Assembly: GCA_964545575.1 (NCBI GenBank)
Contig: CAZJFL010000007.1
Location: 31,848-95,847, forward strand
Direction: 5' to 3'
DNA length: 64,000 nucleotides
From: an uncultured Planctomycetales bacterium
GTDB taxonomy: Bacteria > Omnitrophota > Gorgyraeia > Gygaellales > Profunditerraquicolaceae
Shown in pieces: positions 8,295 to 60,570 of this stretch. Both the position numbers and the translations under genes were made by a program. Within the stretch, counting starts at the first letter, position 1; each line of letters starts with the position of its first letter. The notes beneath the pieces are model-generated. The model was not told where the DNA came from and searched no databases. It worked only from the letters and a program-made list of their open reading frames with translations.

Positions 8295-8348
8295 GAATTT
8301 AAACTTTAGGATTTGTTTAGGATTTCGGATTTAGAATTTAGGATTTCT
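8295..8348. repeat. GGATTT/TTAGGATTT short-repeat tract (dispersed family, copy A)
   Basis: The plus strand reads tttaggatttgtttaggatttcggatttagaatttaggatttc. The same unit recurs near 11722-11770 and 14780-14940. Confidence 0.5.
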
Positions 8349-11089: not shown

Positions 11090-11839
11090 CTAAAACTTAA
11101 AGTTCACGCTGGCGGCCAGGGCGTCGCTATCAAAAAACGAGCCTTCCAGGTTGATCCAGATTTTCTGCGCCAGCGGTAGATCAAAACCAAAAATCAGGCC
11201 CCAGCTCTTTCCTAAGTCTGACATTTTGCGTTTACGCCGCTCTCCCTGCCAGTGGATATAATCGATTCTAGACCATCTGGTTCCTAGATAGGGCCTTATA
11301 AACCTGAAGTCATAAGACACCAGCGCCGAAGTCTGCCAATCATCTAAAACTGCCCGCTGCTTTACTCCTAAGACATAAGTATGCTTCGGATGCACGCTGA
11401 TATGCTGAAATCCAAATACAGCCTTAATCTTGTGCGCATCGTAAAGCCTTAAACGCAGGCCGTAACCTCCGTCAAAACTATAGGCATAATCTATTTCGCT
11501 GGCTCCGGGCGGGCGCTGTTTTATATCCCCGGCCCCGCCCTTTAAATCTATGGCGAACCAATCAAAGACTCCGTAGGACAGGGTAAAGAAGTTCTGGATA
11601 CTGCGCACTTTTCCATAAGCATCCTCTAAATACCTTTTAAAGATAGAGTGGGTCTGGAAACCGCCGAAGAACTCGCCCCTCTCGGGCATCTTTGTGCCGT
11701 AACAGGGAGCAGCGTAGCAATTAAAATCCAAAATGCAAAATTCAAAAATCAAAATTACAATCCAAAATTTTCCCGCTAAAGCGGGATCCCGCCATATATT
11801 GAATATTAAGGAGCGGGAAAAATTTATTTTAGCGGACAT
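11090..11839 (-). CDS. Putative outer-membrane beta-barrel protein (start uncertain)
   Basis: Shows an alternating aromatic/hydrophilic pattern and a C-terminal ...SVNFKF. The N-terminal about 50 codons are encoded by an AAAATCC repeat tract plus hairpin, so the true start may be the internal Met near 11689. Confidence 0.35.
   Translation of the reverse strand: MSAKINFSRSLIFNIWRDPALAGKFWIVILIFEFCILDFNCYAAPCYGTKMPERGEFFGGFQTHSIFKRYLEDAYGKVRSIQNFFTLSYGVFDWFAIDLKGGAGDIKQRPPGASEIDYAYSFDGGYGLRLRLYDAHKIKAVFGFQHISVHPKHTYVLGVKQRAVLDDWQTSALVSYDFRFIRPYLGTRWSRIDYIHWQGERRKRKMSDLGKSWGLIFGFDLPLAQKIWINLEGSFFDSDALAASVNFKF
11722..11790. repeat. AAAATCC repeat tract plus CCCGC-taaa-GCGGG hairpin (dispersed family, copy B)
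   Basis: aaaatccaaaatgcaaaattcaaaaatcaaaattacaatccaaaatttt followed by cccgctaaagcgggatcccgcc. Confidence 0.45.
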
Positions 11840-12456: not shown

Positions 12457-15029
12457 TTGCGAAGTTCCAAGATTATCCTTTGCTTTACCTTTTTAGCCAG
12501 GACCTCCAGGAATTTCTTAAAATCCCGGTATTCGCTTTCGGTTATTCTGTTTTTCTTTAATTCCGTGCTCTGTTTAACATATATTTTGTTTGCCTTACGG
12601 ATATACTCAAGGTTAAAGCTTAACCAGGGGGAGTCGCTGGCGATATTTTCGGGCATATATTTTAGGGTGAAATTATCGGGGATAGTAATCTCTAAAATAG
12701 ATTCTTTGCTATCCATGACTCCAAAATCAAGCGGGTATTTGCGTACGGCTTTGGCTACGAAAGAAGTATCCAGGGAAGCAAACCCCGGGGCTATCCTTAA
12801 GTTTCCCGCCAGAGTAAAGTACTCCGGGCCGCTAAAGGCATAATCCAGGCTTACCGGGGTATTTAAATCTTCTAAGTTTTTAATCTGGTACTGCCTGAGC
12901 TCCGCGCCGATAGAAACCTCCTGTATTTTTTCCTTCAATGCCTCTGCAATCAGTTCCGGCGGAGTGTGCAACAGCCAATACCTTTGCGCCTGATCATAAA
13001 TACCGTAGGTAAAAATGGATTTCTGGGCAGCAATAGATTCATTACCCTGCACCTCAATTTTAAGATATTGCCGGGTCAGGTTATGCTGCGCCGGGTAAAA
13101 AGGTATGTCTTGTATCTGGCATTTATCTTCTTTAATCACTAATACCGACCTGCCCTGGTCCATCGCGGGAAGATCTCTGAAAGAACAAGTCTCTGCCGTG
13201 GGGTCAAGAAATACGGTTTCGCCGTCCAGCGCCACCGCGGCGATAGCGTGGTTAAAAAGCATGGCGGGAAATCCCGGATCTAAGTTATAATATTCTTTGG
13301 TGGGGATCAGCACCGGCCAGGCCTTTATCCCCGCTTCCGTTAGCATCGTAACTAAAAGTATAGCCTGGTCTTTACAGTCGCCGTATTTATTCCTGAAAAT
13401 ATCCTCGGCCTTGTGCGGCTCGTAACCGGCCTGCCCGTATTCCACCGCCACATAACGGATTTCTTTGGCGCAGAAATTATAAACCGCCCTTGCCTTCGCT
13501 TCCAAGGATTCGGCGCCGGAAATCAACTCTCTGACTTTATCTTTGATGGGAGCATCGGCTTTTATTTTATCTTTGGCTAGCCGCCACCACCAGCTGTATA
13601 TATCCTCCCAGGGCTGAAACGTAGAGACCAGGATAGTGGGATTTATTTCTATATTGGGCGGCATGCTGGGTTCCGGGAGTATCTGCGGGATATTATTGAA
13701 CTGCCAGCTATAAATTAAGCTGCCGTTCTGTTTCTCTATCCGGGGCTTTAATTCAGCGGTGAAATTATTGTATTTTTCATTCAAATCTTTAAGGTGCAGG
13801 GTTTTATTTTCGGGCAGAAAAAGCCTAAAATCAGCCCTGATAATCGGCTCTGACGCTTGCACCGGATAGCTGAAAGCAAAATCTTTTTTATTGATCAGCT
13901 GGTTGCGATAAATTTTTACTTTGTATTCTATTACCGAACCTTCTGCGATTTCGGGAAAAGAAATAATATAAACCCGGGCATTGCTGTAGAGCGGAAAATT
14001 AAGGTACTTGGAGACATCGCGGATATGGCGGGAGCCGACCTCCACCACTTTGCCGTCCGGCCGGATGGTACGGGCATACTCCAACTCCACTTTTTCGTAA
14101 GTAGAATCGTAATCTATATGGCTCTCCGAAAAACCTTCCTTACCGCGCTCATTAAGGATCTTCACCAGGTAATATAAAGAAGAAACCAGCGAATTCTGCG
14201 GCGTAACTTCTATTTTTTCGTCGCAATATAAAACCAGCGCACCGGCCTGCGGGTAATCTTCTGCCTTTGGCGCGCCTTTGATCATTTCGGCGACCTTAGG
14301 GTCTAGCTCGGATATATCCCTTAGATTGACCTGCCTTTCAATGATATTGGCCCGCCCTAAGGCAAAGGAGGTGAATTCTTTTGCTTTTATTTTTTTATAG
14401 GTATCCAGCGCCTTGTCAAAAAGGTTTAATTTTTCGCAGGTTAATCCCTGATAATAGAGGTATTCGTCGTCGGGAATCTCGTTTTTATTAAAGACCTCCA
14501 TGGCGTCGGTGAAATTACCGATGCGGTAATAGGAGATAGCGAGTAATTTCCTGGCGGGTAGAGTGTCTATATTTTCCAGCGCTTCTGTTGCTTTTTCAAA
14601 TTCGCCGTGCTCATAATATAGTTTCCCCAATTCAAAACGCAGATTACCTTGTTCAGCGCCTTTGGCGATTAAATCCCGCTGTATCTTTAAGGCACGCTGA
14701 TAACTGGCCTCTGATTGACGGGCGTACTTTTGGACCCGCTCCATCTCACTTTTTTGGGTACACCCCGTTAATAGGAAGGCGAGACATGCAACAATCAAAA
14801 TCCTAAACTCTAAACTCGAAATTCTAAACAAATCCCAAATTCTAAATTCAAATGTTCTAAACGAACTCTGTTTTGAGTTTTGAACATTGGGATTTTGATA
14901 TTGTTTAGGATTTAGGATTTCGGATTTCGGATTTACCGTTTTAGCGGTATTTATAATATGCATTACAGGCTCCTTCGCTAGAAACCATACACGGGCCAAT
15001 GGGATTATCCGGCTTACATATTTTAGCAA
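12453..15029 (-). CDS. Transglutaminase-like lipoprotein with TPR region (DUF3857-like N-domain; start probably downstream of ORF start)
   Basis: Carries the TGase core YGDCKDQAILLVTMLTEAGIKAW, TPR-like repeats, and a lipobox LLTGC after a hydrophobic segment. The ORF-track start overlaps the 3' end of hypD by 88 nt, and the N-terminus is encoded by a palindromic repeat tract. The real start is therefore likely near 14800. Confidence 0.5.
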   Translation of the reverse strand: MLKYVSRIIPLARVWFLAKEPVMHIINTAKTVNPKSEILNPKQYQNPNVQNSKQSSFRTFEFRIWDLFRISSLEFRILIVACLAFLLTGCTQKSEMERVQKYARQSEASYQRALKIQRDLIAKGAEQGNLRFELGKLYYEHGEFEKATEALENIDTLPARKLLAISYYRIGNFTDAMEVFNKNEIPDDEYLYYQGLTCEKLNLFDKALDTYKKIKAKEFTSFALGRANIIERQVNLRDISELDPKVAEMIKGAPKAEDYPQAGALVLYCDEKIEVTPQNSLVSSLYYLVKILNERGKEGFSESHIDYDSTYEKVELEYARTIRPDGKVVEVGSRHIRDVSKYLNFPLYSNARVYIISFPEIAEGSVIEYKVKIYRNQLINKKDFAFSYPVQASEPIIRADFRLFLPENKTLHLKDLNEKYNNFTAELKPRIEKQNGSLIYSWQFNNIPQILPEPSMPPNIEINPTILVSTFQPWEDIYSWWWRLAKDKIKADAPIKDKVRELISGAESLEAKARAVYNFCAKEIRYVAVEYGQAGYEPHKAEDIFRNKYGDCKDQAILLVTMLTEAGIKAWPVLIPTKEYYNLDPGFPAMLFNHAIAAVALDGETVFLDPTAETCSFRDLPAMDQGRSVLVIKEDKCQIQDIPFYPAQHNLTRQYLKIEVQGNESIAAQKSIFTYGIYDQAQRYWLLHTPPELIAEALKEKIQEVSIGAELRQYQIKNLEDLNTPVSLDYAFSGPEYFTLAGNLRIAPGFASLDTSFVAKAVRKYPLDFGVMDSKESILEITIPDNFTLKYMPENIASDSPWLSFNLEYIRKANKIYVKQSTELKKNRITESEYRDFKKFLEVLAKKVKQRIILELRK
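14780..14940. repeat. Large imperfect palindrome built from AATCCTAAA / TTTAGGATT repeats (dispersed family, copy C)
   Basis: The left arm reads aatcctaaactctaaactcgaaattctaaac...; the right arm reads gtttaggatttaggatttcggatttcggattt. The arms are reverse complements of each other. Confidence 0.5.
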
Positions 15030-16229: not shown

Positions 16230-17351
16230 TCAGTTTCTGTATCCGGCAATAACTGCTTGTCCTAAAGAAATACCACTGTCATCGGGAGAAAGGATCCGGT
16301 GGATAAAAATCCGGAACCCTTCTTTACATAATAAATCTAAAATCAGCCGAAGTAAAAGTTTATTTTGAAAGACCCCTCCGGATAAAACTATTCTTTTTAT
16401 CCCCGTTTCCTTTTTTAGCGCCAAACAGGTTTTCCTAACCATCTCTGCTACGGTTAAATGAAACCTGTAAGCTATTTCCCTTTTAGGCGCCTTACCTTTT
16501 AAATCCGAAACTATTTGTTTAAACATCGGGGCGGGATCGATTATATACTGATCGGAGGTTTTGGTTATTTTGAAGCCGTAACCGGAAGCCTGAGGCCGGG
16601 AACTTAAAGCCAGCTTCTCCAAGGTAATCGCCAGTTCCGCCTCGTAAACGGTGTTTTTCTTTTCTAATACCAAAGCTCCCGCCGCATCAAATAACCTGCC
16701 CATGCTACTGGCTAGGGGAGAATTCAGGCTGATTTTATATATTTTTTCCAAAATCCGCCACTTCTGCTTATCCAAATTTTTCACAAAGTTTATTTTTAAA
16801 CTTAAAAATTTATCTTTATAGGTTAAATACAGCCAGGCTGCGGCCACCCGCCAGGGCTCTAATATCGCCCTCTCGCCTCCCAAAAGCGGGATTTCTTTTA
16901 AATGCGCCAGGCGGGTAAAACTTTTATAATCGCAAACTAAAAACTCCGCCCCCAAAAGCCTATTATCCACGCCCAGGCCTGTGCCGTCAAAAGCCACACC
17001 GATTACTTTTTGGTTCGCCAGGCCGTTTTCTACCATGCAGGAGGCGATGTGAGCATGGTGATGCTGAATAACTTGAAACTTGTAATTTGAAACTTGTAAC
17101 CCATGTATATATTTACTAGACTGATATTCCGGATGTAAGTCAGAGGCGATAATCTTGGGTTTCTTTTTTAAAAAATATTTTACCGTCTTGGCAAAATTTA
17201 AAAAGTCTATTGGGTTATTCAGGTCCGGATGCACCGGGCTAAGATAGGCAAAGTTGCCTTTGGCAAAACAGACGGTATTCTTGCCTTGAGGCCCCAATGC
17301 CAGGACTGATTTTTTTAATTTAAAAGGCAGCTTTATTTTTACCAACCTCAT
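16230..17351 (-). CDS. hypF: HypF-like carbamoyltransferase, Kae1-like C-terminal domain only (no acylphosphatase, Zn-finger or YrdC domains)
   Basis: VLALGPQGKNTVCFAKGN, QHHHAHIASC and the Kae1/HypF C-domain. It is 373 aa, against about 750 aa for full-length HypF. Confidence 0.65.
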   Translation of the reverse strand: MRLVKIKLPFKLKKSVLALGPQGKNTVCFAKGNFAYLSPVHPDLNNPIDFLNFAKTVKYFLKKKPKIIASDLHPEYQSSKYIHGLQVSNYKFQVIQHHHAHIASCMVENGLANQKVIGVAFDGTGLGVDNRLLGAEFLVCDYKSFTRLAHLKEIPLLGGERAILEPWRVAAAWLYLTYKDKFLSLKINFVKNLDKQKWRILEKIYKISLNSPLASSMGRLFDAAGALVLEKKNTVYEAELAITLEKLALSSRPQASGYGFKITKTSDQYIIDPAPMFKQIVSDLKGKAPKREIAYRFHLTVAEMVRKTCLALKKETGIKRIVLSGGVFQNKLLLRLILDLLCKEGFRIFIHRILSPDDSGISLGQAVIAGYRN

Positions 17352-23202: not shown

Positions 23203-23249
23203 AAAAATTACTAGTTACGAGTTACTAGTTTACTAGTTACTGAATTTTA

Positions 23250-23321
23250 GGCCAGTCCCCGCAGAAGGCGGGACACCAAACCATCCGATAGGTTTGGGTG
23301 CTTAACCTGTTTTTGGCCAGT
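23250..23321. repeat. Two-hairpin ~50-nt repeat element, copy 1 (between the ntpB stop and the ntpD start), flanked by ggccagt direct repeats
   Basis: ggccagt-CCCCGCAGAAGGCGGGACACCAAACCATCCGATAGGTTTGGGTGCTTAACC-tgttttt-ggccagt. The 3' end of the core overlaps the ntpB stop codon. A tandem ttactagt repeat lies at 23207-23240. Confidence 0.55.
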
Positions 23322-30607: not shown

Positions 30608-30655
30608 AATCCTCCTTCACAATGTAAACGCCAATCTATCCGATAAGATTGGGCG

Positions 30656-31441
30656 TTAACGCCAAATTATCTCATCCGCACAAAATACCGGGCCTTCTTT
30701 ACAGACCCGCTGGAAACCCGCTTTGGTATTTACGACGCAGCCAAGGCATGCCCCGATACCGCAACTCATATGTTCTTCAAGAGAAACCTGGGCCGGGATT
30801 CTATAATTTTTAGAGATTTTTGAAATCTCTTTTAGCATCGGGCGCGGGCCGCAGGCATAGATTGCTAATCGCTTATTGCTAATCGCTAATCGCAAAAAAC
30901 TGTTTAATAAATCTGCGGCTTTGCCCTTAAAACCCCGGGAGCCGTCATCGGTAGCTATTTTAACACTACAGCCCAATTTCTTAAACTCTTTTTCGCATAA
31001 GACCTGCTCCTTTGACCTAGCCCCGATTAAAACTTGTGACTTATTGAGCCTCTCAGCGAGGAATAATAAAGGCGCTACCCCCATGCCGCCTGCCACCAAA
31101 ATCGGTGTTCGGTGTTCGGTGTTCGCTGCTCGGTAATCAAAGCCATTGCCCAACGGTCCTAATATATCCAGGAACTCCCCGGATTTTCTCTGAGATAAAA
31201 TCTTGGTAGCCGGGCCCAGCACTTCATAAAGAAGAAAGATATTCGCGCCGCTTACCCGGTGTATGCCTAGCGGCCTTCTTAAAAGCGGCTGGCAGCTATC
31301 CGATACTTTTACCTGCACAAACTGTCCGGGATAAGCTGCCCGGCTGATGCCGCCGGCGGCTAAAATCATTTCAAAATAGGCAGAGCCTACTTTTTTATTG
31401 GCGACAATCTTAGCCTTTTGCTGCAGTATCTTTTTTCTCAT
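30656..31441 (-). CDS. pyrK: Dihydroorotate dehydrogenase electron-transfer subunit
   Basis: FAD/NAD-binding fold with a C-terminal 2Fe-2S Cys cluster (CGIGACLGC). Contains in-frame short tandem DNA repeats at 30862-30900 and 31095-31135. Confidence 0.75.
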   Translation of the reverse strand: MRKKILQQKAKIVANKKVGSAYFEMILAAGGISRAAYPGQFVQVKVSDSCQPLLRRPLGIHRVSGANIFLLYEVLGPATKILSQRKSGEFLDILGPLGNGFDYRAANTEHRTPILVAGGMGVAPLLFLAERLNKSQVLIGARSKEQVLCEKEFKKLGCSVKIATDDGSRGFKGKAADLLNSFLRLAISNKRLAIYACGPRPMLKEISKISKNYRIPAQVSLEEHMSCGIGACLGCVVNTKAGFQRVCKEGPVFCADEIIWR

Positions 31442-38155: not shown

Positions 38156-38230
38156 GGGACAGTCCCCGCAGGAGGCGGGGCACCAAACCATCCGATAGGT
38201 TTGGGTGCCTAACCCTTCGGGGACAGTCCC
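38156..38230. repeat. Two-hairpin ~50-nt repeat element, copy 2, flanked by palindromic GGGACAGTCCC direct repeats
   Basis: gggacagtCCCCGCAGGAGGCGGGGCACCAAACCATCCGATAGGTTTGGGTGCCTAACCcttcggggacagtccc. Confidence 0.55.
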
Positions 38231-38251: not shown

Positions 38252-38326
38252 TGGTGCGCCTGGTGGGAATCGAACCCACACACCCAGCTCCGGAGGCTGG
38301 TGCCCTATCCATTGGGCCACAGGCGC
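38252..38326 (-). tRNA. tRNA-Arg (anticodon CCG)
   Basis: The reverse complement reads GCGCCTGTGGCCCAATGGATAGGGCACCAGCCTCCGGAGCTGG...GGTTCGATTCCCACCAGGCGCACCA. CCA is encoded. Confidence 0.85.
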
Positions 38327-38797: not shown

Positions 38798-41347
38798 TTA
38801 AAATAAACTTAACTGCTCCTCGTCTTTATGCTCTTTTTCTTCGTCGCCGAAGATGGAAATTATCCCGTATTCTCCGTCGAAACCGGCCTTGATATTGACT
38901 TGTGCCTGGCGCACCCTGAAAACTCCCTCTGCCACGCGCGCAGGCAACCCTTTTAACAAATCCTCCTTAGAAGCACGCAGCAGGATTTCAAATTCCGTGC
39001 CGAACCTGGCTACTACGTTGCGATACTCTCTTTCTACGGCCAGCGAATTTTTGCCCACCCCTCTTGCCTCGGCAATAATCTCATCCAGCGGAATCAGGTG
39101 TTTAAAGGGGATTACTCCTGAAGGGGCATAGCCTTCGGGACGATCCGCTAGCTGCTCTACGCGGTTCATTACCCCGACAGTCACGGGCTTACCGCACTTC
39201 GGGCATCTGCCATTGTGAGCTTTGGTTTCCTTTGGCGACCAGCGCACTCCGCATAAGCGGTGGCCGTCGAAATGGTATTTGCCCTCTTCAGGAAAAAATT
39301 CGATGGTATATAAAAATCTGGATTTATCCTTGGTCCTGAGCACCTCTCTGATAGTTTTATAATTTAACTCACAATTAAATACATTTGCCTCCCGCCCGAT
39401 TTTAGAAGGAGAGTGGGCATCGCTATTAGATATCAGACTAAATCTATCTAACGCGCTGAGCCTCCAATTCATGGCAGGATCCGACGATAAACCTGTTTCC
39501 CCCGCAAATATTTTTGGGGTTTGCTTCTCAAAACAATCCTCTATTCTATCAAACCCGGACATTGAACCAAATAAAGAAAACCACGGTGTCCAGCAATTAT
39601 GAACAGCTGCAAATTCACAGACATAAGAATTATCATCTTCTACCTCTAAATTATATACGATGCCTTTATATTCTTTCTTTGTAATTGTCCGGACTGGCAA
39701 GTATGCATAATTATTATCTATCCAGCCGTGCCTAGCGGTCAATTTGGTTTTAAATTTTTTAAATAAGCCTTTTTTTAACAAATTAAATTTGTCTTCGAAA
39801 AAAGAAAGATTACTAAATTGAAAAAGATTATACTTTGCCGATATTCTCCTAGTTCCTATAAAATGCTTTCCGCGATTGTTATACTTCTCTATAGAATCTA
39901 CGCCTATCGATGGAATAATGCCTAGTTTTAAAAATATGATTTTCATTTGATTCATTAAATTCCTTGAAACAGTATAACCTTTATCACCAGCCCACCAACT
40001 TTTGATAATCTCTACCTGTTTTTGAAGTGGCAGGTTTAACATCCAATCCGGCAAAGACTTGGAATGCGCCTTTTTTGCTTTAACACTTGTATAGAATAAC
40101 CGGCTAAATAATTCATATAAAACTTTGGAATAGAAAATTAATTCTATTCCTTTTATATCTTTTTTAACCTGTTTTTTTGATAATCCGACGCCAAAGATTT
40201 TTTTCATTAAATCTATAACATCTTTTATGTATTCGCCCTCACTTTCCAAGAAACAAAACGCAACGCAATCTCTACCGTTTGTATACCCTTCAGAAACGAA
40301 ATATCCTGCAAGTCTACAGAAATTTTTATCAATATCGATATGGTTATTTATAAAATTAACCTTCGTCCCATGATAAGCTATTTTGTCTTTCTTTAAAATA
40401 AAATTTCCCAGTATCAATTTATTGATTTGTATCTCCTTTTTGTCTATGATTTGGCCATTAAACCTTGGAAAAATCATAATATCGCCTATTTCTATATCTT
40501 TAGCTTGGACCCATTGGGGATAATATTTATTAAAGAATTTACGCTTACAACCTTTATATTTTAACTGGGAGCAGTTTGGCATACAAAAACTGCCTCGTGA
40601 TGCACAATTTTTATAGGTTTTTATTAAATAAAAAGGGTGCTCCGGAGTGACTTTTATACCTTCTCGAAAATAATAAGGTTTTACATGAAATATGGGCCCC
40701 TCGTATTTTCTTTGTAATGATTGGGTTATCTTCTTAAATCTCATTTTATGAGTGTATGCATAATCTCTGACCGCGATATCTTTTATTGGTTTTAATCCTT
40801 TGCTGGTGTGTACCATTGTATCCGGCAAAAGACAATGGGCCGGGATGACCATGCAATTCTCGTCAATATCAAAAACTATCCGCGCCAGTTCTGATGCGTC
40901 CATCCCCAGTATCGGCCGGCCGTCTGAGGCTAAATTGCCGTGCCTGGCGAGCACTTCATTGATTTTGTCGGTGGTCTTAAAAGAAGGGCTGATCACCATG
41001 TTGTGGATACGGTAGCCCTTGCCGCCTTTGGAATAAATGCTGCTGATCTCAGAGGTTAAAATAAAATAAACCTCTTTGTACTTAAATAACCCGCTGCCTA
41101 AATCCTCCAAATTGTTTTTGAGCTCCTCCAGCCATAAATGATGGGTAAAATCGCCGGTGCCCATCAAGGTAATGCCTTTTAGCTTTGCCCACTCGGCAAT
41201 ATGCTGAATATCCATATCGCGCGATGTGGCGCGCGAATATTTGGAATGAATGTGGAAATCAGCGATAAATTCCATTACTTCATTATCTCCTCTAAAGTTT
41301 TCTCGACATTTCCCCAATGCGTGCCCTGCCAATAAATCCGGTTGCAT
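38798..41347 (-). CDS. PHP-domain nuclease (endonuclease-Q-like) interrupted by an intein; extein about 436 aa
   Basis: PHP-like FHIHSKYS at the N-terminus and a zinc ribbon CPKCGKPV in the C-extein. The extein length matches EndoQ-type proteins. Total length 849 aa. Confidence 0.5.
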   Translation of the reverse strand: MQPDLLAGHALGKCRENFRGDNEVMEFIADFHIHSKYSRATSRDMDIQHIAEWAKLKGITLMGTGDFTHHLWLEELKNNLEDLGSGLFKYKEVYFILTSEISSIYSKGGKGYRIHNMVISPSFKTTDKINEVLARHGNLASDGRPILGMDASELARIVFDIDENCMVIPAHCLLPDTMVHTSKGLKPIKDIAVRDYAYTHKMRFKKITQSLQRKYEGPIFHVKPYYFREGIKVTPEHPFYLIKTYKNCASRGSFCMPNCSQLKYKGCKRKFFNKYYPQWVQAKDIEIGDIMIFPRFNGQIIDKKEIQINKLILGNFILKKDKIAYHGTKVNFINNHIDIDKNFCRLAGYFVSEGYTNGRDCVAFCFLESEGEYIKDVIDLMKKIFGVGLSKKQVKKDIKGIELIFYSKVLYELFSRLFYTSVKAKKAHSKSLPDWMLNLPLQKQVEIIKSWWAGDKGYTVSRNLMNQMKIIFLKLGIIPSIGVDSIEKYNNRGKHFIGTRRISAKYNLFQFSNLSFFEDKFNLLKKGLFKKFKTKLTARHGWIDNNYAYLPVRTITKKEYKGIVYNLEVEDDNSYVCEFAAVHNCWTPWFSLFGSMSGFDRIEDCFEKQTPKIFAGETGLSSDPAMNWRLSALDRFSLISNSDAHSPSKIGREANVFNCELNYKTIREVLRTKDKSRFLYTIEFFPEEGKYHFDGHRLCGVRWSPKETKAHNGRCPKCGKPVTVGVMNRVEQLADRPEGYAPSGVIPFKHLIPLDEIIAEARGVGKNSLAVEREYRNVVARFGTEFEILLRASKEDLLKGLPARVAEGVFRVRQAQVNIKAGFDGEYGIISIFGDEEKEHKDEEQLSLF
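39596..40834 (-). mobile_element. Intein (413 aa) with LAGLIDADG-type homing endonuclease
   Basis: Splice-junction signature ...VIPAH|CLLPDTMV...AAVHN|CWTPW (Cys1, terminal HN, +1 Cys) and a LAGYFVSEGY DOD motif. Confidence 0.7.
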
Positions 41348-45539: not shown

Positions 45540-48500
45540 TCAGACGCCCTTTTGTAAAGCCACTTTAATTTCCTGCGCCGGCTTTCCGGATTCAAGTAGA
45601 ACTAACAATTCCCTTAAAGCCGAATCCGTAGCGCAGCAACTCTCTTCTTCTAATCTTAAAATATCGGCAATACAGCTTAAGACTTTATCTATCTGCTGAT
45701 TAAAATCGCTCTTTTCGCAGTAGGCGGCCAAATATTCCTTGATTCTTTGAACAGATGGCGTAATCCCGGCGTTGAGCATATTCTCTATTTGCTGCCATTC
45801 TTTATCATTGCTTGCTACAGGCATCATTCCCGGAATAGGCCGTAACGCAGGAATTGCCCCGGGCATTCCCGCAGAAGGCGGGACACCCGCCAATCCGATA
45901 TGGCGGGGTGCTGGCTGGGTAATAATCGGCAGCGCGCGGAAATCGATACCGCCGGTACCGCCATCAGCCTTAGCTGATGCTGGGATAGGCTGACCAGCTG
46001 GCCCTCTCGAATTATCGCTGCCACCCGCTGGACGGTTAAGGTCGCCTGTGGCATTCGGCTGCTCTAATAATAGATAAGCGCATTTCCTACCCGGTACATT
46101 TCGTTTTAATGTCACCCTGCCGTATATCTGTTCTATTGCAGCAACAAGATTAAATTTATCTAACATATCATCTATTCTATCGCCATTACAAACAATGAAA
46201 CCGCCGTCAGAAAGCAACCGAGCTAAATCGGCAAGATGATTTAAGAATCTGCTGTAAGAAAGCCCTGGTTGATTTGATTGGGAAACTTCTGGCCGTAATA
46301 AGAATTGTATTGCTTCGTAACTATAGATAATATCTATCTTCGCGCCAGGAAATCTTCGCTCTATAGCCTTCGGTAAATTTTCAGCGACATCTACAATGAA
46401 TGTAACATTGTCGGGGATGCCTCCTTGTTCCGTTTCCGGAAAATAGGTATCGCCGAAAGCAATAATTTGAACATTATTACTTCTCGATTCTTTTAATTTA
46501 CGGGATAGGTCCTTTACTTCTTTTAAATTACCTGCGCCCCAAGCCAAAATATACAATGTCTCGTCTTTACTGCTCTTGGCTTTTGCCTTAGCAACAATCT
46601 GCTCGAATAGGGATCTATTCAAGAAACGAAATCTTTCCTTAAAAATAACCGCTAGGTCGGAGTCTACTGTGTCAAAAGAACTATCGGAAACAATCCAATA
46701 GTGATCCGTATGCATCCCCATGCTGCCATCTTCGTTAAGAAAAATCCTGCCTCCAGTTGGGCTTTCTTTAAGTTTTCTTTTTTGATCCGGGGTTAACTGT
46801 TCACTAAACACGATTTGTTCGTTATTATCCTCGGCGGCGGGCGCGGCGGTGGATGGCTGCGGAACACCGCTATAACCTGTAGTCGGCACATTAATATTTG
46901 CTCTTAAGGCGCGCTCTCTGCGTCCGAGAAAATAATCTACCACCTCTTTTTGAATCAACAGGGCAGCTAAGGGGTTAACAACAGAATCGTTTATCCCTCT
47001 AGCCTGGTCGATATCGTCCCGGGTCTCTGTTAAGCTGGCAGAAACTGCGCTGATTCGACCGTCAGCAGCGTGGGATAACTCGCTTATCGGCCCGTAATAA
47101 CGCGGCATCAATTGCATGGCCACGGCTAAAACGCTATTGGTGGTCATCGCTTTTTCTGAGCGTTCCACTAGCGGAGCTGTTTTAGGAAAGGCTTGCCTTA
47201 GCGCTGCCGAAGTGCCTACAGGAAAATCCATCAATCTGCGCGACTCGTTGGCGGTATAAACAAGCTTAATATCGATTTGCCTAAATATTGACGGGCGGCT
47301 GTAAACCCGGCCGATAATTTCTGTAGCCAAGTCTCTGGTGCTCCCATCGAATGCGGTATCAATGACAATGAATCTTTCCCCTTTATTCACTGCCTCTTCT
47401 GTAATACCAAAGCCGGCAAAAAGATTTTTTATTTCCTGCTGGAAAGCATAGTCTTTACGTCCTGCTGGAGAGATCAAGCGGCCCCGTAGCTTCAATAGCA
47501 GCGGCATGCTGACGTTAAAAAGCACTATCCGCTCAGCCTCTGGGCTGCCTTTCAGCACTGCTTGTAAAGCATCATAAATCATTTCGGCGTCCCTGCCGGC
47601 GATTAAAATCCTGCTGTGGGTGGATAAATATTTCTGTACTTCTTTTATTATTTGCTCTAGATACCCGCCCTCTAGCAGATGCCTGACTTCCTGAAAAGTC
47701 AAAGAATTCTCAATCGTTGCAATATTAACTTTGGCTTCTTCCTTGTTACCGGCTACCCTGGTAGCCGCAGCTAAGATATCATCCCGCGTAAAACTGGCTA
47801 CTTCATATGGGTGCGGACGAAGACTAGGCCGAAAAAGATATTTTTGAATACGCTCGGCGGTGGGCGCGGCGGCACTTTCTTTTTCCTTGGCTGATGGCGA
47901 CGCTGGTTGCGCTGGCGCAGGAGGAACTATTCCTAGCGGTAGCTCAATAAAGAAAGTCGTGCCTTTTCCGATTTCGCTTTTATACCAAATGTCGCCGCCG
48001 TAATCCTTAACCACCATCCTGGCTTCAGCCAGGCCTACGCCGCCTCCGGTACTAGATACCCAAAGGCTGAAGATATCCTGCTTCTGCATTGCTTCAGGTA
48101 TCCCCGGGCCTTTATCATTAATACTGATAATTACGCGGCGGCGAGCAGCATCACCTGTTATCTGTGTCCGAATAACTATCGGCTTTTCTCTTTCCTTTAT
48201 ATCTACCGGCCCTTGTCTTTCCTTTGTGTGGCGCCTGGCATTATCGATGATATTGGTAAGGATTACTCGCAATCTCAGATTATTACCCATAATAGGCAAA
48301 GGACTTGATTTAACAAAACTCACCTCCTCGACGTGCGGAGCAACAACGCTATCAATCAGATCCCCTAAATCGAACAACTTTGCCTTCCCTATATTTCCTT
48401 CAAAAAACATAATCCGATCCTGCAAAATAGTTAAAAGGCCATTAAACTCCTTTCTTATCCCGTCTTTGTCTTCATCTACGTGCGGATCATCAGACAAATT

Positions 48501-51500
48501 CTTATGCAACCCAGCGATCAATTCTTCAAATTGGCCTTGGTATTGCTTAAACAATCCGGTGATCGCCCTCATCTCTTCTTGCCATTTCTGCGCCTGTTGA
48601 GTATCTGATCTTATCCCTAATTTACATTTCTCGACAACATCACTACGAAGACTAGACACCCTACTACAGAGCTTCTTCACAATTTCTTTAAAACCTATGA
48701 GATTATTAACAATTACTTTGCTCTCTCCCTTTGTATCTATAGCTCCAACATCATCGGCTAACATCTGTAAATATCCGGGCAAAGCGGCCACATTTGCAAC
48801 AACATTTAATACAGGTCCGTGGTACATACTGCGTATAATAAGGGCGATGCGCTCAAATTCATCTTCTTGGCTACGACTGAGCAAAGAGGAGGTGGCGGAC
48901 CCTTCGACTGCGCTCGGGGTAAACGGCTCCGGCGCAGCGGGCGCGGCGGTGGGCGTAACATCTATAGGCTCATTAAAAATACCAAGCCTACGGATGGCGC
49001 GTTCTATCCTCGCTAGTAAATTACCTGTACCAGCCGCCAGAGGATTAAATCCTTTGATAGCGCCCGAACGCGTATCTAGTGCAAAATCGCCCTCTAAAAC
49101 AGTTTCCTCTATTATCTCGTCGCCTGATCGAAGCATCTGCTCCTTGAGTTTGTCTTTGAGTTCCGGGTCCAAATTACGCGTATAACCGAAAACAAGTTGA
49201 AGATTACCACCTCCTGCCAATCTCCTTAATTTAAACAGCATCAATTTTATAAAGTTTTCTTCTGCCGCTGGGCTGTCTATGTGCGCAATCGCGCCAACGC
49301 GCTGCTGCCTGTCATATAATAATAGGCCTCTGCAGGCCTGAGGTTTTCCGGTGGCAAATGTCGCCACTACCGGATAAGGGCTGTTTGCGGAAGTCACGGC
49401 ATATTCGCCTTGAACCACGACAATATGTTTTGCTCCGTTTATCTCTATGGGTTCGGCTTTCAGGGCGGCCTTATCCGTTAAAATTCCGCCCCGGCCGGTA
49501 ATCTGGATAATTTGAGGAGCGAGGAAATCTTCAACGTCTGGAGAAAAATATACTGCGAACCCCCGGCCGCGCAATATATTAAGTAAGTGGATGAACATCT
49601 GATCATCAAGGCCGCGGCAATGTATAGACCCGTCCTTGCCTAACTGCACAAGCTCTCTGCCATCAATATTCTTAAAGATTATGCCCGAATCCCCTTGCGC
49701 AGGTTCTGCTTTTGCGATTACTTTCAGGGATAAGATTGTTTCTTCTAAATCCCGTATATCTGCGGCGGCCAACGGCAACCTTGTGCCGACAGGTAGCCTC
49801 TCCCCGGCTGTGCTCGGCGCGGGCTTGGCGGCGGACGCGTCAGCGCTCGTTTCAGCGGGCGGCGCGGATTGGCTCGGGGGAAGTTGCTCTTCTATCTTAA
49901 GCGCCTCTTCAACCGTAATGATCTTCACTGCTTTACCGCCGCGCACCACATAACGATGCTTGGCAAAATCAGCGCTTCCGGCTAAGATAATCGTGCCTTC
50001 CTTGCAACTATCCAGTATGTCCTTCCAGGCCTTTTCCCGTCCGCCTCCATAGCCAGGAGAAAAATGCATATCCACGTTGGTAAAGACGATGATATCCGGC
50101 CGCTGCCCAAAGGGCAGGGGGCTTTCTAAGATATCGTGCTGCCGGAATTCTTCGGGAGATAAAACTAAATCCTTTGAACTAAAAATATCGGTGCCCGCAT
50201 AGCGAAACGGCAGAGCGCGCTTCCTAAGCAAGTCAAGGTACAGTTGCGCGCTGCGTCCTCCGGCAGAACCTATTTCAACGATAAAAGGCGCGCCTTCTCC
50301 AAACTTGCCGGCACGAACCCCTGCTTCGACTAGGGCGACTACAAAATCAGCTACCTCCCTCTGGTAAATATCTACGACTTTCCCGATATTCTGCCGGCTC
50401 TCGGCTAAAGTGCGTTCTATGTCGGAAGTGAATACGGGGAAAAGCTCTAACAACATATTTCTTAGGTTTGGTTCGGCAAAAATTCTGGCAATCTGTTCTT
50501 GCTGTTCCTGAAGGGGCGCCTGGCTTAAATCCTTGCCGATAATCTGCTTTAGCAATAGACCCAGGCGCGGCAAATCGCGTAAGCCCCGTTGATCGCGCTT
50601 TCCGGCTAACTCCAAAATTGTTCCGTAGATACTTGACTCTTTAGCCTGCCTTAAAAATACAGCCCATAAGGAATCTTGTTTCACCGGAAGGCGCCGTAGA
50701 GTTTCTTGGCAGGAGAATTCGCTGCCTAATAATCCGCCATCGATAGACACAACAGCCCGCCCATCCAAATATATAGAATTAAAGCGGATTTCCTCCTGGG
50801 GCAGGCGGGGATCTACTTTTAGCGGGCTATTCTGGTTAATAAATTCCCGCAACTTTATAGTTAGCTTGCCGGTTAAATTTTCTGTTCCGGACTGCCGCAA
50901 CCATTGCTCCGGGGTTAAATTATCGTAATTATCCACAAAGAGCGCCTTCTGGATTAACCGGGCGACCTGATGCCCCAAGGGATCCCCTAATATTGCGGTA
51001 AGGCGATAGCAAAGAGGTTCGTGTAAAAGATATTCTGTTCTTAATTCGACAGGCAATGACTCTAAAAGCTCCCGGCTATAAGCTAAGTAAGTTTCCCCGG
51101 CCAGGCCAAGAGCATAATGATCAGGGCTTCTGACGATAGCGGAAAACTGCTTAAGGGATTTAGCCCCCTTTACTAAGTCATCGCGCGCCTGTACAATCGC
51201 CTTAAATATTGTTTCCTTTGATATAACCTGAGTGGCGCTTAAATTATCTAAAATAGCCTGCAAAATTACATTTTCTTTCAAGGCGCGTATGTCGGGGATA
51301 GCGGCGTTGATCCGGGAAAAATCTTGACTCAATAAAGCACTGTCTAAGCCCGCCAGCCGGCTCTCTACTTCACTTGGAGCGACGCCTCTGATGATCGCCC
51401 CGTGGCCTTCCTGGTCAATTCCGGCATCGGCAGGTGCGGCGGCGGCGGGCGGCGCGGGCTTGGCAGCGGACTGCCGAGCACCTTTTGTCTGCCGTATGCT

Positions 51501-54500
51501 GGCAATAGCCAAAAATGTAGCTCCTGACAACATTAAAACAGGAATACCGTAGGTAAGGCCTATTACCAACAATATGCCCCCAAAGGCAGCGCGAGCAAAA
51601 ATAGGAGGAACCCGTATCTTTGGCCTGTCGAATTCTCCTCCTTCTCCCCGCTTAGTCATCTGATTAACAGATCTTAATTCTTTTGCCGCAAGAGAATTAT
51701 CCTGTAATAGTATTCTCATCTTACCGATAAACCCGGCTATTCGATCCTTCAAATACTTCTCTACCCTTGTCGTTAATATAGACGTCTGGATCAGCGGCTT
51801 ATTTAACCCTATGGCATACCGATGTTTCAAGGCCATGACCAGATCTGCAAATTTCTTGCCTTCCTGCAACTTCTTAATCATAACAAAAACAGAATTCAGG
51901 AAATCCCGCTGGGTAGGAATAGCTTCTTTCAGCCCACGCAGCGCCAGATGATCGAAAAACTTGCGGAACTCTTCTATGATTGCGAATGCAGCTTGGTGTT
52001 CGCTATCAGTAAGCCTATTTTGTTGATGCAAGGATTTGCGCAGCTTGTCATATTCCTTCCGACGCCAGGCGATAGTATCAGACCAACCCATCTCTTCCAG
52101 AAATAAAAGAGCTATTTCCTCGGCAACGAATTCCTTTAGCGCCCGTATTTGTGTATCTACTACTTTTTCTGACGTTAACTCCTCACCTGCATAAGCGGAT
52201 AAGATGTTGTGTCCGATTTCATGGGCTATAAAACTAAAACAATTGTCTGCGGTACCAATACGGACTATAGTAGGATAACTAATAGAATAGGCGGCATTCA
52301 TCGCGTAGTTCTGTTCTTCAGCTTTTAACAACGTATTGCCCATGATGTTACGCGCCCACTCTGCAAAGTCTTTTTTGCTTATTGCAGCCCTGGTCCGCTG
52401 CAAGCTTTCTTGCAGCACAAGCAATACCGCCAATATATAAACCTTAGCCATCTCATTAGACAGGCTGTCGCTACCCGGCAAGATTGTTTTGACTGTTACA
52501 TTACGCTTCTCTTTTAACAAAGTTTTTGCCAGACGCAGCGCTAATGCCTGATCATCTTGGCTTATGTTTTCCTGCGCTAACAAGCCAAAGGCGTAAAGAC
52601 GTAATTCTGTAGGGATCACTTCTCCCGCTAACGTTTCTTGATTAAAGAGCTGGCGCAGGGTTTCTTCATAAGAGCCTGATTTTAATGCCCCGATGTCTAG
52701 TTTACGGCTATATTTCTGATTTATCCGCTGTATCAGGCCGCCTAACATCTCCCGCAGATAATCTACATTCTTGCTTTCTATGCATAACGCATTGTAAGTA
52801 TTAAAAGCCCCGTTCCTTGCCGCCTCGCCGGACTCACTACCCAATGTCCCTGTTATCTGGCTGTGTACCTCCTTTACGCAAGACTGATCCGACAATGATA
52901 ATAATGCCTTGAGCGCATTAAATTTACCTTTAGAGTTTCCCGACGCCACTTCTTTTAGAATGCGCTGCGCTGTTTTATCGCCTTGCCCTGCACGCCATAT
53001 AGTCTCGTAGGTTACCGGCCAGGCCTCATTTTCAACCCCTATTACGGTTCTCTGATAATCGCTAAGCTCTGCCCAGGCCTCAAGCTCTTCCAGAAGTTCT
53101 CTGACTGCGTTAACGTTAGCGATATCTTTCCTTAAACGCCCATCGCCGTTGCTTAAAAATCTTTTGGCTAGAGAAGCTACTTGCGGATGTATCTCGTATG
53201 CCCTATTTATCAGCACTTCTAATTCTTCCTGGCTCGGCTCCCGGTCAACAAAAATACCGTTATACAGCTGCCTGCCAAGCCGCATACTATCCGGGGAAGC
53301 CGCTAGGCTAGCCTGCGGACTACGTCCTATCAAAAGCTCCCGTAACTCCTTAAGCGCCGCCGCCGATGGCAATTCGTCTAGGTATATGGTAAAAGGATAC
53401 GCTTTATTTTTGCCGTCCCAATTATCAAATGATTGCGCTTGAGTGTAGTGGACATTACTAAGATTATGTTTTTGGGCCCAACTTTCTATTTTATCTATGA
53501 CCTCTGCTTCGTTTTGGACGCCATAAAAATATACCCTGTACTTGGAAGGCGCATTGAGCAAACTGCTGATATCGTTGGACACATGTGCGCTCTGTATTTC
53601 AGCAAAGATAAATCCTCCCAGACTAATACATGCGGCTAAGGCAGGCGCGAAAATCAAAAGCGTGCTTGGCATTAATCCCAGAGTAGTAAGCGCCAAAGCT
53701 ACCCAACCAACGAAGCTTAATCCGCTTGCTACTCCTAACCCGGCTGTGATATATTTAAACGCCTTAGCTACTCTATTTAATCTTTGCTCTTTACCTCGCA
53801 GTAAATCAATATTTTTTGATTTACCGCGGTCGATCAGTGGCTCGCGATATTTCACATAAAGCGTGGTCAGCCAAGGCTGTAATATTACGTGCAGAGATGG
53901 GCCTGCCCGTTGACGCTGCATGGCGCGGATAACCCGGGCGAACTCTATAGCGGATTGCCTACTTTCTGCTTTTAATTTTGTAAGCTTATCCTTCTGGTAC
54001 TTAAGATCGCCTGGAATCGATAGCATATACACTCCTATAATGACTACTACGGCGATAATTCCCTGAATTATTTGTGCTTCCGCGCTGCCGTAAGGATTTG
54101 CCATTTGCTTCAAGAGCAACGAGTCTGACGGCGAAGCTAATACTCTTGTGAAAGAGTCCAGCACTACTGCCGCGGCGATGCCCTGCAGCAGGCGCGTGAA
54201 AAATCCGGTCCTTGGCTGTGGAGTTACTTCGGTTGCGGGCGCCTCTTCGTTTTCGGCGGGACGCGGCGCTACTTTCTCTTCGGCGGCTGACGGTTCTACC
54301 TGAGGAAGTTCCAAAAGAGGCACCCCAAATACCTGTTGGCATGCCCTATCGCCAACTACGAATTCTCTGCCCTGCGGGCCTGCCTTATCTCTTATCTTAA
54401 CCAGTACAGCAAAAAGCTGGCTACGCGCCTGCTCTTTCTGCGCGTCAGACGCAGCGGTTACTGCGACCCAAACATCCAATAAATACCCCAACAAGGATGA

Positions 54501-60495: not shown

Positions 60496-60570
60496 GGTTT
60501 AGCTTATCGCTTATGGCTAATCGCTTGTCGTACGATATGCGATAAGCGATATGCCATTTGTCAATTTAAA

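Follow-up and report, generated by a model that had tools for sequence, protein, structure and literature searches.

In a 64,000-nt stretch of DNA (the window) from an uncultured Planctomycetales bacterium assigned to the Omnitrophota (GenBank assembly GCA_964545575.1, contig CAZJFL010000007.1, positions 31,848 to 95,847), four copies were found of a repeat of about 45-50 nt that is composed of two adjacent hairpins. These two-hairpin repeats are an apparently undescribed family that, as far as we have searched, is confined to Candidatus Omnitrophota. Alignment of about 100 copies from 43 species-level genomes shows that their structure is kept by compensatory change, and comparison of orthologous sites shows that the copies are insertions relative to both close and distant relatives. 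We regard the family as probably a new non-autonomous mobile palindromic element, mostly transcribed in sense, of the kind represented by repetitive extragenic palindromes (REP), BIME and Rickettsia palindromic elements (RPE).

The initial annotation of the window had described three copies of a two-hairpin element, lying between the V-type ATPase B and D genes, between tRNA-Arg and a LOG-like gene, and inside a giant open reading frame (ORF). Its positions are confirmed by pattern matches, both for hairpin 1 (23259-23272, 38166-38179 and 45869-45882) and for the hairpin-2 pattern CACC-N3-CCATCCGATAGG-N3-GGGTG, which matches the window three times (23274-23300, 38181-38207 and 45884-45910) against 0.01 matches expected from shuffled sequences. 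All three copies are thus real and their contexts had been correctly read, but a fourth and more divergent copy had been overlooked, which was picked up by a covariance model (R1) built from 23 uniform copies and was also scored with a broader model (R2). Furthermore, all credible genes and all four tRNAs of the window lie on the minus strand, so the transcribed form of the element is the reverse complement of the version first presented; the strand shown there was the non-transcribed one, and a Shine-Dalgarno-linked subclass had been missed. The four copies are as follows.

23257..23301, minus strand: copy 1 (class B core), hairpin 2 at 23274-23301 and hairpin 1 at 23257-23273; 72.3 bits with model R1.
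38164..38208, minus strand: copy 2 (class B core), hairpin 2 at 38181-38208 and hairpin 1 at 38164-38180; 72.9 bits with model R1.
45867..45911, minus strand: copy 3 (class B core), in-frame within a 4070-aa ORF (45540-57752); 73.4 bits with model R1.
30616..30658 (model match 30614-30658), minus strand: copy 4 (class A, Shine-Dalgarno-linked); 32.5 bits with model R1 and 39.2 bits with model R2.

Copy 1 begins immediately after the TAA stop codon of the V-ATPase B gene (23302-23304) and lies 55 nt 5' of the V-ATPase D start (23202). Copy 2 has tRNA-Arg(CCG) (38252-38326) on one side and the start of the SLOG/LOG-like gene (PF18306; 38129) on the other, and copy 3 encodes the peptide APRHIGLAGVPPSAG within the linker of the 4070-aa ORF's C-terminal domain. 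The whole intercistronic gap between a pyrK-like gene and a GT2 glycosyltransferase gene is filled by copy 4, which runs from the TAA stop of the former (30656-30658) through hairpin 2 (30629-30655) and hairpin 1 (30616-30628) to a GGAGG (30611-30615) and the GTG/ATG start of the latter (30607/30604), in the order TAA-CGCCC-AAUCU-UAUCGGAU-AGAUU-GGCG-UUUAC-AUU-GUGAA-GGAGG-N-AUG.

Read on the gene strand, the element has the layout 5'-GCACC(C)-N5-UAUCGGAU-N5'-GGUG-[hairpin 1]-3'. Hairpin 2, the conserved one, comprises 9-10 bp: its lower stem, GCACC/GGTG, has a bulged C, its upper stem of 5 bp covaries freely, and its loop reads TATCGGAT in DNA. This hairpin is a short imperfect palindrome, as REP-type sequences (21-65 nt, often bulged) are. 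Hairpin 1 follows directly and is variable in sequence, with 5-6 bp and a pyrimidine-rich loop. Whichever strand is taken, the two adjacent hairpins of copies 1-3 are predicted to fold at about -21 to -26 kcal/mol (z-scores from -2.3 to -3.4). The compensatory stem swap that had been pointed out in copy 3 is real and amounts to a fourfold compensatory change (AAACC/GGTTT to CGCCA/TGGCG), and a further one is seen in the outer stem of copy 4, where G-C stands in place of A-U. We also weighed, by eye only, a pseudoknot between the loops or between a loop and the Shine-Dalgarno sequence, and dropped it for want of covariation; mimicry of a tRNA T-arm was rejected, given that the loop does not match the T-loop consensus.

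The extent of the family was defined by an exact scan for CACC-N5-ATCCGATA-N5-GGGTGC over 185,579 species, with one genome per species. The scan returned 78 loci, 68 of which have complementary N5 stretches and a second hairpin; these lie in 43 metagenome-assembled genomes (MAGs) labelled Candidatus Omnitrophota/Omnitrophica, 'uncultured Planctomycetales' (TPA bins) or 'bacterium'. The other 10 belong to other phyla and have non-complementary N5 stretches, and about 17 chance matches are expected for 18 specified bases. The V-ATPase B relatives of the window place it, too, in Omnitrophota. The initial annotation had proposed a covariance-model search, and this search, run over the scan loci, recovered 100 copies from the 43 MAGs and the window. 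In their alignment, whose fitting to the model favours pairing, 96.7% of stem cells hold standard pairs, compared to 38-48% after a shift of the partners by 1-3 columns; the complementarity of the upper stem is, however, already plain in the raw pattern hits. Changes on both sides are seen in 14 of the 15 stem pairs (332 cells), values that none of 500 shuffles reach, which bears out the earlier reading of the covariation as the mark of a conserved secondary structure. The loop and the lower stem with its bulged C (GCACC/GGUG) are invariant in the pattern hits by construction; nevertheless, the loop is still mostly TA(T/A)NGGAT in 27 additional, unbiased model hits, whose loop variants mostly keep GGA (TATAGGAT, TAAAGGAT, TGAAGGAT and TCTTGGAA).

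The novelty that had been claimed for the element is likewise upheld. At gathering score, Rfam 15 finds only tRNAs in the window and no family at the element, and at E-values up to 10 it yields nothing over the window copies or over about 35 copies in 18 loci. The exact pattern has 0 hits in viral contigs. No description of such an element was found in the literature on Omnitrophota/Omnitrophica repeats, REP or RNA motifs, and the phylum goes unmentioned in a 2026 preprint on intergenic features. The window sequence itself is also present in two other public assemblies of the same organism.

A comparison with empty sites had also been proposed by the initial annotation, and relatives without the element were found at all four window sites, the basis on which the copies are read as insertions. 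About 120 V-ATPase B homologues end in ...EKYWPK followed by 0-3 residues, and the window protein ends in KYWPKTG. Among the closest relatives (L081-L084; 93-97% amino-acid identity), copy 1 is absent in L081 (nucleotide identity of 93% for B and 92% for D) and in L083 (89% and 85%), and the B-D spacer of L081-L084 reads GGGACTGTCCCC-N27-GGGGACTGTCCC, a pair of GGGAC-type palindromes without the two-hairpin core. In the window lineage, the interior of a GGGAC pair has thus been replaced by the core. The B and D genes of L087, a more distant relative, overlap.

The tRNA-Arg to SLOG synteny around copy 2 is kept in at least 13 of 23 inspected metagenomic relatives, with a spacer of mostly about 10-15 nt. 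In L102 the corresponding site reads GGGACTGTCCCC-GCA-GGGGACTGTCCC followed by the downstream sequence of the window, so that the palindrome pair is present and the core is missing. At the site of copy 3, 36 of 39 homologous C-terminal domains carry no core-derived peptide in the linker. The pyrK-GT2 junction of copy 4 is overlapping in relatives or has a spacer of 2-16 nt with AAGGAGG (five relatives); L111 has a divergent variant there, with the loop UCUUGGAA. Moreover, the broad model detects just 2 copies over 420 kb of related contigs, as against 4 in the 64-kb window, a density about 13 times lower. Insertion polymorphism at all four sites, together with the 100 copies, is a pattern expected of MITEs (miniature transposable elements with inverted repeats).

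Two of these loci offer observations in their own right. The tRNA-Arg(CCG) lies only 10-15 nt 5' of the SLOG/LOG-like start in most relatives (L095, L096, L099, L114, L118, L127 and others), and the spacing makes it seem that the SLOG/LOG-like gene is co-transcribed with the tRNA or starts right behind it. In L090, L091, L092, L097 and L098, the tRNA is replaced by a conserved, structured-looking region of about 190 nt (GCGGGTGGCTTGG...CCAAGACAGGACCCGTAAAA) about 200 nt 5' of SLOG, which may be another non-coding element. The C-terminal domain that houses copy 3, in an ORF that also bears HATPase_c, spans about 135 aa with the pattern GGIDFRALPI-linker-EWQQIENML..PS.QRIKEY...SCIADILRLEEE...LLESG; it is common to at least 39 proteins with unrelated N-termini, the named ones mostly from Omnitrophota and one labelled Nitrospirota, and no Pfam family covers it.

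Copies 1 and 2 are bracketed by the short sequences ggccagt and gggacagtccc, respectively, which had been compared to target-site duplications. The bracketing features are as follows.

38156..38166, no strand: GGGACAGTCCC palindromic module beside copy 2, part of a separate paired-palindrome element.
38220..38230, no strand: second GGGACAGTCCC module beside copy 2, which can pair with the first and so place the core in the loop of a larger hairpin.
23250..23256, no strand: the right 'ggccagt' beside copy 1, a degenerate GGGGACTGTCCC remnant by alignment with L081 and L083.

We rejected the interpretation as target-site duplications, since the left ggccagt of copy 1 consists of YWP codons that all homologues of V-ATPase B conserve, and the GGGACNGTCCC modules are seen at empty sites: GGGACTGTCCC pairs occupy the same sites in relatives without the two-hairpin core. 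No target-site duplication, terminal inverted repeat or exact boundary could be defined for the element, whose two hairpins are independent.

The bracketing modules belong to a second repeat family, consisting of pairs of the near-palindrome GGGAC(A/T)GTCCC(C) set 3-30 nt apart and able to form a 12-bp hairpin. Such pairs are seen with or without the core, at the flanks of copy 2, in the V-ATPase B-D spacers of L081-L086 and in the L102 spacer. Where it is translated, as in many protein linkers and in the extended V-ATPase B C-terminus of relatives, the GGGACNGTCCC module reads GTVP. A further kind of repeat in the window is the tandem array with a 7-nt period, found at 23208-23241, 8305-8346, 14904-14935, 11719-11769, 14798-14853, 17070-17100, 30864-30893 and 60502-60530; several of these arrays appear at or near gene boundaries, 23208-23241 being the one that was placed. 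Examples are TTACTAG, repeated 4.7 times directly 5' of V-ATPase D, and TTTAGGA, found at two places, and the array next to copy 1 is missing in the 97% relative. These arrays recall the intergenic TAACTGA heptamer repeats reported in Beggiatoaceae (PMC4679880).

Further signs of mobility come from the family at large. Six copies are nested within the hairpin-2 loop of another copy (L063, L020, L071, L051, L011 and L027, the insert in L027 having the opposite orientation), and 20 of 98 copies lie between perfectly complementary flanks of at least 7 nt, compared to 5% for re-paired flanks. Copies enclosed in this way sit in the apical loop of a larger palindrome, and one enclosing stem shows a compensatory change of its own (AACTTATG/CATAAGTT versus AACTTACG/CGTAAGTT). 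Tandem and inverted clusters are found in L024, L038, L042, L054 and L009, and near-identical subfamilies with common flanks occur inside one MAG. Separately, cyclic di-GMP-I riboswitches (RF01051) were detected in two of the clustered loci, at L038 1730-1850 (plus strand) and L024 7190-7318 (minus strand), with 80.6 and 38.1 bits as listed with L038 first; the former lies about 1.5 kb from the element and the latter less than about 50 nt from the element array.

Copies translated in-frame are seen in at least five contexts and two reading frames, a behaviour that places the family beside RPE, with no relationship in sequence or size implied. Besides copy 3, these contexts include P0124, P0122 and P0156, with the core-derived peptides APRPIGRPGVPLSAG, MHPNLSDGLVSR and TPRPIGGPGVPPSA, the last at another site of the C-terminal domain, and the PLD-like ORFs of L030 and L069, where the PLD-like domain of two species contains MHPGLSDGRVSRFLRE and MHPAVSDRRVSRPLRE. 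Across the family, the sites occupied are permissive ones, namely operon junctions, 5' untranslated regions (UTRs), tRNA spacers, apical loops of palindromes (its own hairpin 2 included) and, in-frame, disordered protein linkers.

Two classes of copies can be distinguished. Class A comprises about 35 of 98 copies, including copy 4, and has a short hairpin 1 (e.g. UGCGUUUUCUACGCA) followed by AAGGAGG and, 6-12 nt on, a start codon. About one third of all copies span an operon junction exactly, from the stop codon through the element to the Shine-Dalgarno sequence and start. The genes downstream of class A copies, identified from their translated N-termini, are functionally unrelated (rpoA, HU, ACP, folE, pilT, glycosyltransferases, ribonucleotide reductase, slyD and others), and those downstream in the window (V-ATPase D, SLOG and GT2) likewise fail to form the coherent set expected of a gene-specific cis-regulator. 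Class B, to which copies 1-3 belong, has a GC-rich hairpin 1 (YCCCGC-CUUCU-GCGGGR) and is often set between copies of another palindrome, GGGAC(A/U)GUCCC or GGGACGGUUC. With respect to local genes, 34 class B copies are sense, 16 antisense (about 30%) and 7 mixed, and the family as a whole comprises 69 sense and 19 antisense copies. Local GC skew is +0.12 at sense copies and -0.11 at antisense ones; it tracks the coding strand and so is no guide to replication orientation.

These features suggest how such an element might spread. A trans-acting factor, inherited vertically, would recognise the module made up of the invariant loop, bulge and lower stem, and the most plausible and most economical candidate for it would be an enzyme handling hairpins of single-stranded DNA, such as an HUH/Y1-type nuclease. 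Enzymes of this type recognise bulged hairpins, use the lagging-strand template and insert with a strand bias (PMC6006769). Such an enzyme would explain both the preference for hairpin loops and the sense bias in genomes where nearly all genes are co-oriented. Most copies being co-transcribed in sense, they add stable RNA hairpins to mRNAs, and insertion of a class A unit would be harmless, as the unit spans the distance from stop codon to Shine-Dalgarno sequence. Class A units are probably neutral or mildly beneficial intercistronic or 5'-UTR hairpins ahead of the ribosome-binding site and may insulate or stabilise the downstream cistron. Of the options that the initial annotation had listed (a MITE/REP-like mobile element, a small RNA or a family of binding sites), a REP- or MITE-like mobile element best fits the empty sites and the nesting.

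Several observations weigh against a mobile element of this kind, in addition to the indefinable ends. No transposase family recurs, and no Y1 transposase occurs, among the 25 commonest Pfam families listed for 150 neighbouring ORFs; these families are housekeeping only, and a single transposase could be hidden beyond the listed 25. Similarly, tblastn with IS200 TnpA and E. coli RAYT sequences gave 0 hits in 1.06 Mb of loci, which is weak evidence. The REP guide 5' GT[AG]G lies within 0-2 nt of the hairpin foot in just 7 of 94 copies in sense and 4 of 93 in antisense. The exact 18-nt signature of loop and stem is common to MAGs labelled 40-47% GC, a conservation unusually deep for REP-like repeats. 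Finally, 35 class A copies are placed exactly before a Shine-Dalgarno sequence, in a manner compatible with a host RNA function, and 18 copies (mostly class A) start no more than 8 nt from where a long upstream ORF ends; the stop codon there is in many cases a TAG or TAA overlapping the element's first base.

These last points lead to the alternative that the element is a host cis-acting RNA module punctuating operons and 5' UTRs, with mobility or duplication secondary, which we consider possible, if doubtful. The GGA-containing loop (UAUCGGAU) would be shown to an RNA-binding protein or an RNase, and hairpin 1 and the Shine-Dalgarno sequence would set downstream stability or translation. If, for example, the transcript were cut between the hairpins, the upstream mRNA would keep a hairpin at its 3' end and the downstream mRNA one at its 5' end. 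The 35 of 98 copies with a Shine-Dalgarno sequence and start within about 12 nt of hairpin 1, the 18 copies abutting an upstream stop, the sense bias, the identity of the signature over MAGs of differing GC label and the retention of GGA in the unbiased loop variants all agree with such a role. The same holds for the HU gene, upstream of which the copies of two species lie 11-14 nt after a sigma-70-like -10 box (promoter matches at 11/12 and 10/12 positions). Furthermore, at the orthologous in-ORF site of L030 and L069 (flanks about 80% identical), two stem pairs differ by fully compensatory changes and the encoded amino acids are altered, which requires either selection on structure at the locus or gene conversion from other copies and also counts against the mobile-element reading. 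A change from G-C to G-U is tolerated on the sense strand between L045 and L023; across the family, however, stem mismatches on the sense strand comprise 21 G-U and 19 A-C, so that wobble pairs carry no strand signal and the equality looks like neutral transition decay of inserted copies rather than RNA-specific selection.

A host RNA module is also hard to reconcile with the distribution of the copies: most relatives have no element at orthologous junctions, the related contigs almost lack it, antisense orientation to local genes is seen in about 30% of class B copies, and copies lie inside ORFs and inside each other. The downstream genes share no function, and no CsrA homologue was found in the loci (tblastn over 1.06 Mb, a weak test). 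A broader proposal, which we hold to be unlikely, is that the family goes beyond selfish DNA. In one form, a phylum-wide mobile module targeting hairpin loops, with its own interface from stop codon to Shine-Dalgarno sequence, would have been co-opted as a general 'operon punctuation' RNA; a conserved Omnitrophota protein would then read the invariant bulged GGA-loop hairpin, and in-frame copies would supply new linker peptides to giant proteins. In another, the family would be mobilised by an enzyme class new to REP-like repeats.

It is very improbable that the copies are double-stranded or cruciform DNA sites bound by a protein of the nucleoid or of DNA topology, in the way that IHF and gyrase bind BIME/REP, with mobility and RNA structure irrelevant. 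Multiple intergenic copies near highly expressed genes, palindromic modules and the symmetry of G-T and A-C mismatches between strands would suit such sites, but the upper stem, which covaries freely next to an invariant loop and bulge, points to a hairpin within one strand that is read as a structure rather than to a duplex motif, in-frame coding copies and nested copies are unexpected for architectural sites, and relatives have the element only patchily. It is barely conceivable that the copies reflect chance similarity, an artefact of assembly or part of a known RNA (terminator, riboswitch or ribozyme): nothing beyond the shortness of the element speaks for it, whereas the window matches far exceed the 0.01 expected, the 68 structure-compatible loci come from independent assemblies and the same sequence recurs in two other assemblies of the organism, Rfam gives no match, and no T-run of the kind found in intrinsic terminators follows either hairpin on either strand of the four window copies, L058 being an isolated exception.

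Two other features of the window were noted. Pyrimidine-synthesis genes (pyrR-like, pyrB, pyrC, carA, carB, pyrK-like, pyrD and pyrF) are dispersed in it and alternate with V-type ATPase genes, and an 849-aa ORF (38798-41347, minus strand) matches an intein splicing domain (PF14890) below threshold, with 31.7 bits where the cut-off is 35.8.

Uncultured and for the most part ultra-small, the bacteria of the Omnitrophota carry giant genes, and to our knowledge almost nothing is known of their non-coding DNA. The compact and strongly covarying structure of the family described here lends itself to annotation throughout the phylum, and the family reveals that Omnitrophota genomes carry nested mosaics of small palindromic elements. 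These mosaics remodel operon junctions, alter protein C-termini (V-ATPase B) and add peptides to proteins, a phenomenon best known from Rickettsia. For annotators, 'peptide motifs' of Omnitrophota proteins such as GTVP, PRxIGxxGVPPSAG and MHPxxSDxxVSR are footprints of DNA repeats, and the family offers a handle for finding the trans-acting factor through phyletic profiling.

Among known systems, the binding hairpins of CsrA/Rsm carry A(N)GGA in their loop and a second GGA at the Shine-Dalgarno sequence. Class A units show a comparable geometry, the loop GGA lying about 30 nt 5' of the AAGGAGG and being mostly retained in variants, but CsrA needs no invariant lower stem or bulge, and many Omnitrophota copies have no Shine-Dalgarno sequence, are antisense or lie in ORFs. 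Integron attC sites were rejected, as the ends are GCACC/GGTG instead of the core sites RYYYAAC/GTTRRRY and the neighbours are housekeeping genes. The mycobacterial interspersed repetitive units (MIRU) attributed to Supply et al. (1997) are said to be repeats of 40-100 bp in operon gaps, in sense orientation and with ends overlapping stop and start signals, as in the present family; they are reportedly tandem direct repeats encoding small ORFs, whereas the Omnitrophota copies are usually single, are defined by hairpins and also occur in antisense and in ORFs.

The RPE reportedly described by Ogata et al. (2000) are said to be palindromic repeats that, like the Omnitrophota family, lie in-frame in genes at permissive sites as well as between genes, the mobilising mechanism being unknown for both. 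RPE are reportedly about 100-150 bp long, restricted to Rickettsia and unrelated in sequence, whereas the present element spans about 45 nt, has a Shine-Dalgarno-linked subclass and belongs to a free-living or epibiotic candidate phylum. RPE are also mentioned in a review of prokaryotic MITEs (PMC10969869). With MITEs and the palindrome-associated elements derived from IS200/IS605, whose ends carry subterminal hairpins recognised on single-stranded DNA with a strand bias (PMC6006769), the family shares its non-autonomous, structured and multi-copy nature and its insertion polymorphism. It differs from MITEs in that no terminal inverted repeats, target-site duplication or parent insertion sequence were identified and in being, at about 45 nt, shorter than typical MITEs.

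The RAYT-associated REP, BIME and REPIN sequences (PMC3116915, PMC3479197, PMC6006769) are likewise short (21-65 nt), bulged, imperfect palindromes with many copies per genome, isolated or in clustered mosaics, mostly co-transcribed between genes, with covarying stems and with a persistence that appears vertical and lineage-restricted. Unlike REP, which consist of one hairpin or an inverted pair, the Omnitrophota unit is made of two adjacent unlike hairpins; it lacks a conserved 5' GT[AG]G guide, its copies lie also inside ORFs, and a RAYT gene was not found among the 25 commonest families of the 150 ORFs or by tblastn over 1.06 Mb. Furthermore, its loop and lower stem are identical over 43 species, whereas REP are described as species-specific (PMC6006769). 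Taken together, these comparisons place the Omnitrophota family in none of the REP/BIME/REPIN, RPE, MIRU, MITE or Rfam families, and it is set apart by its two-hairpin unit, the deep conservation of its loop and lower stem, its self-nesting in loops, its Shine-Dalgarno-linked subclass and its recurrent exonisation.

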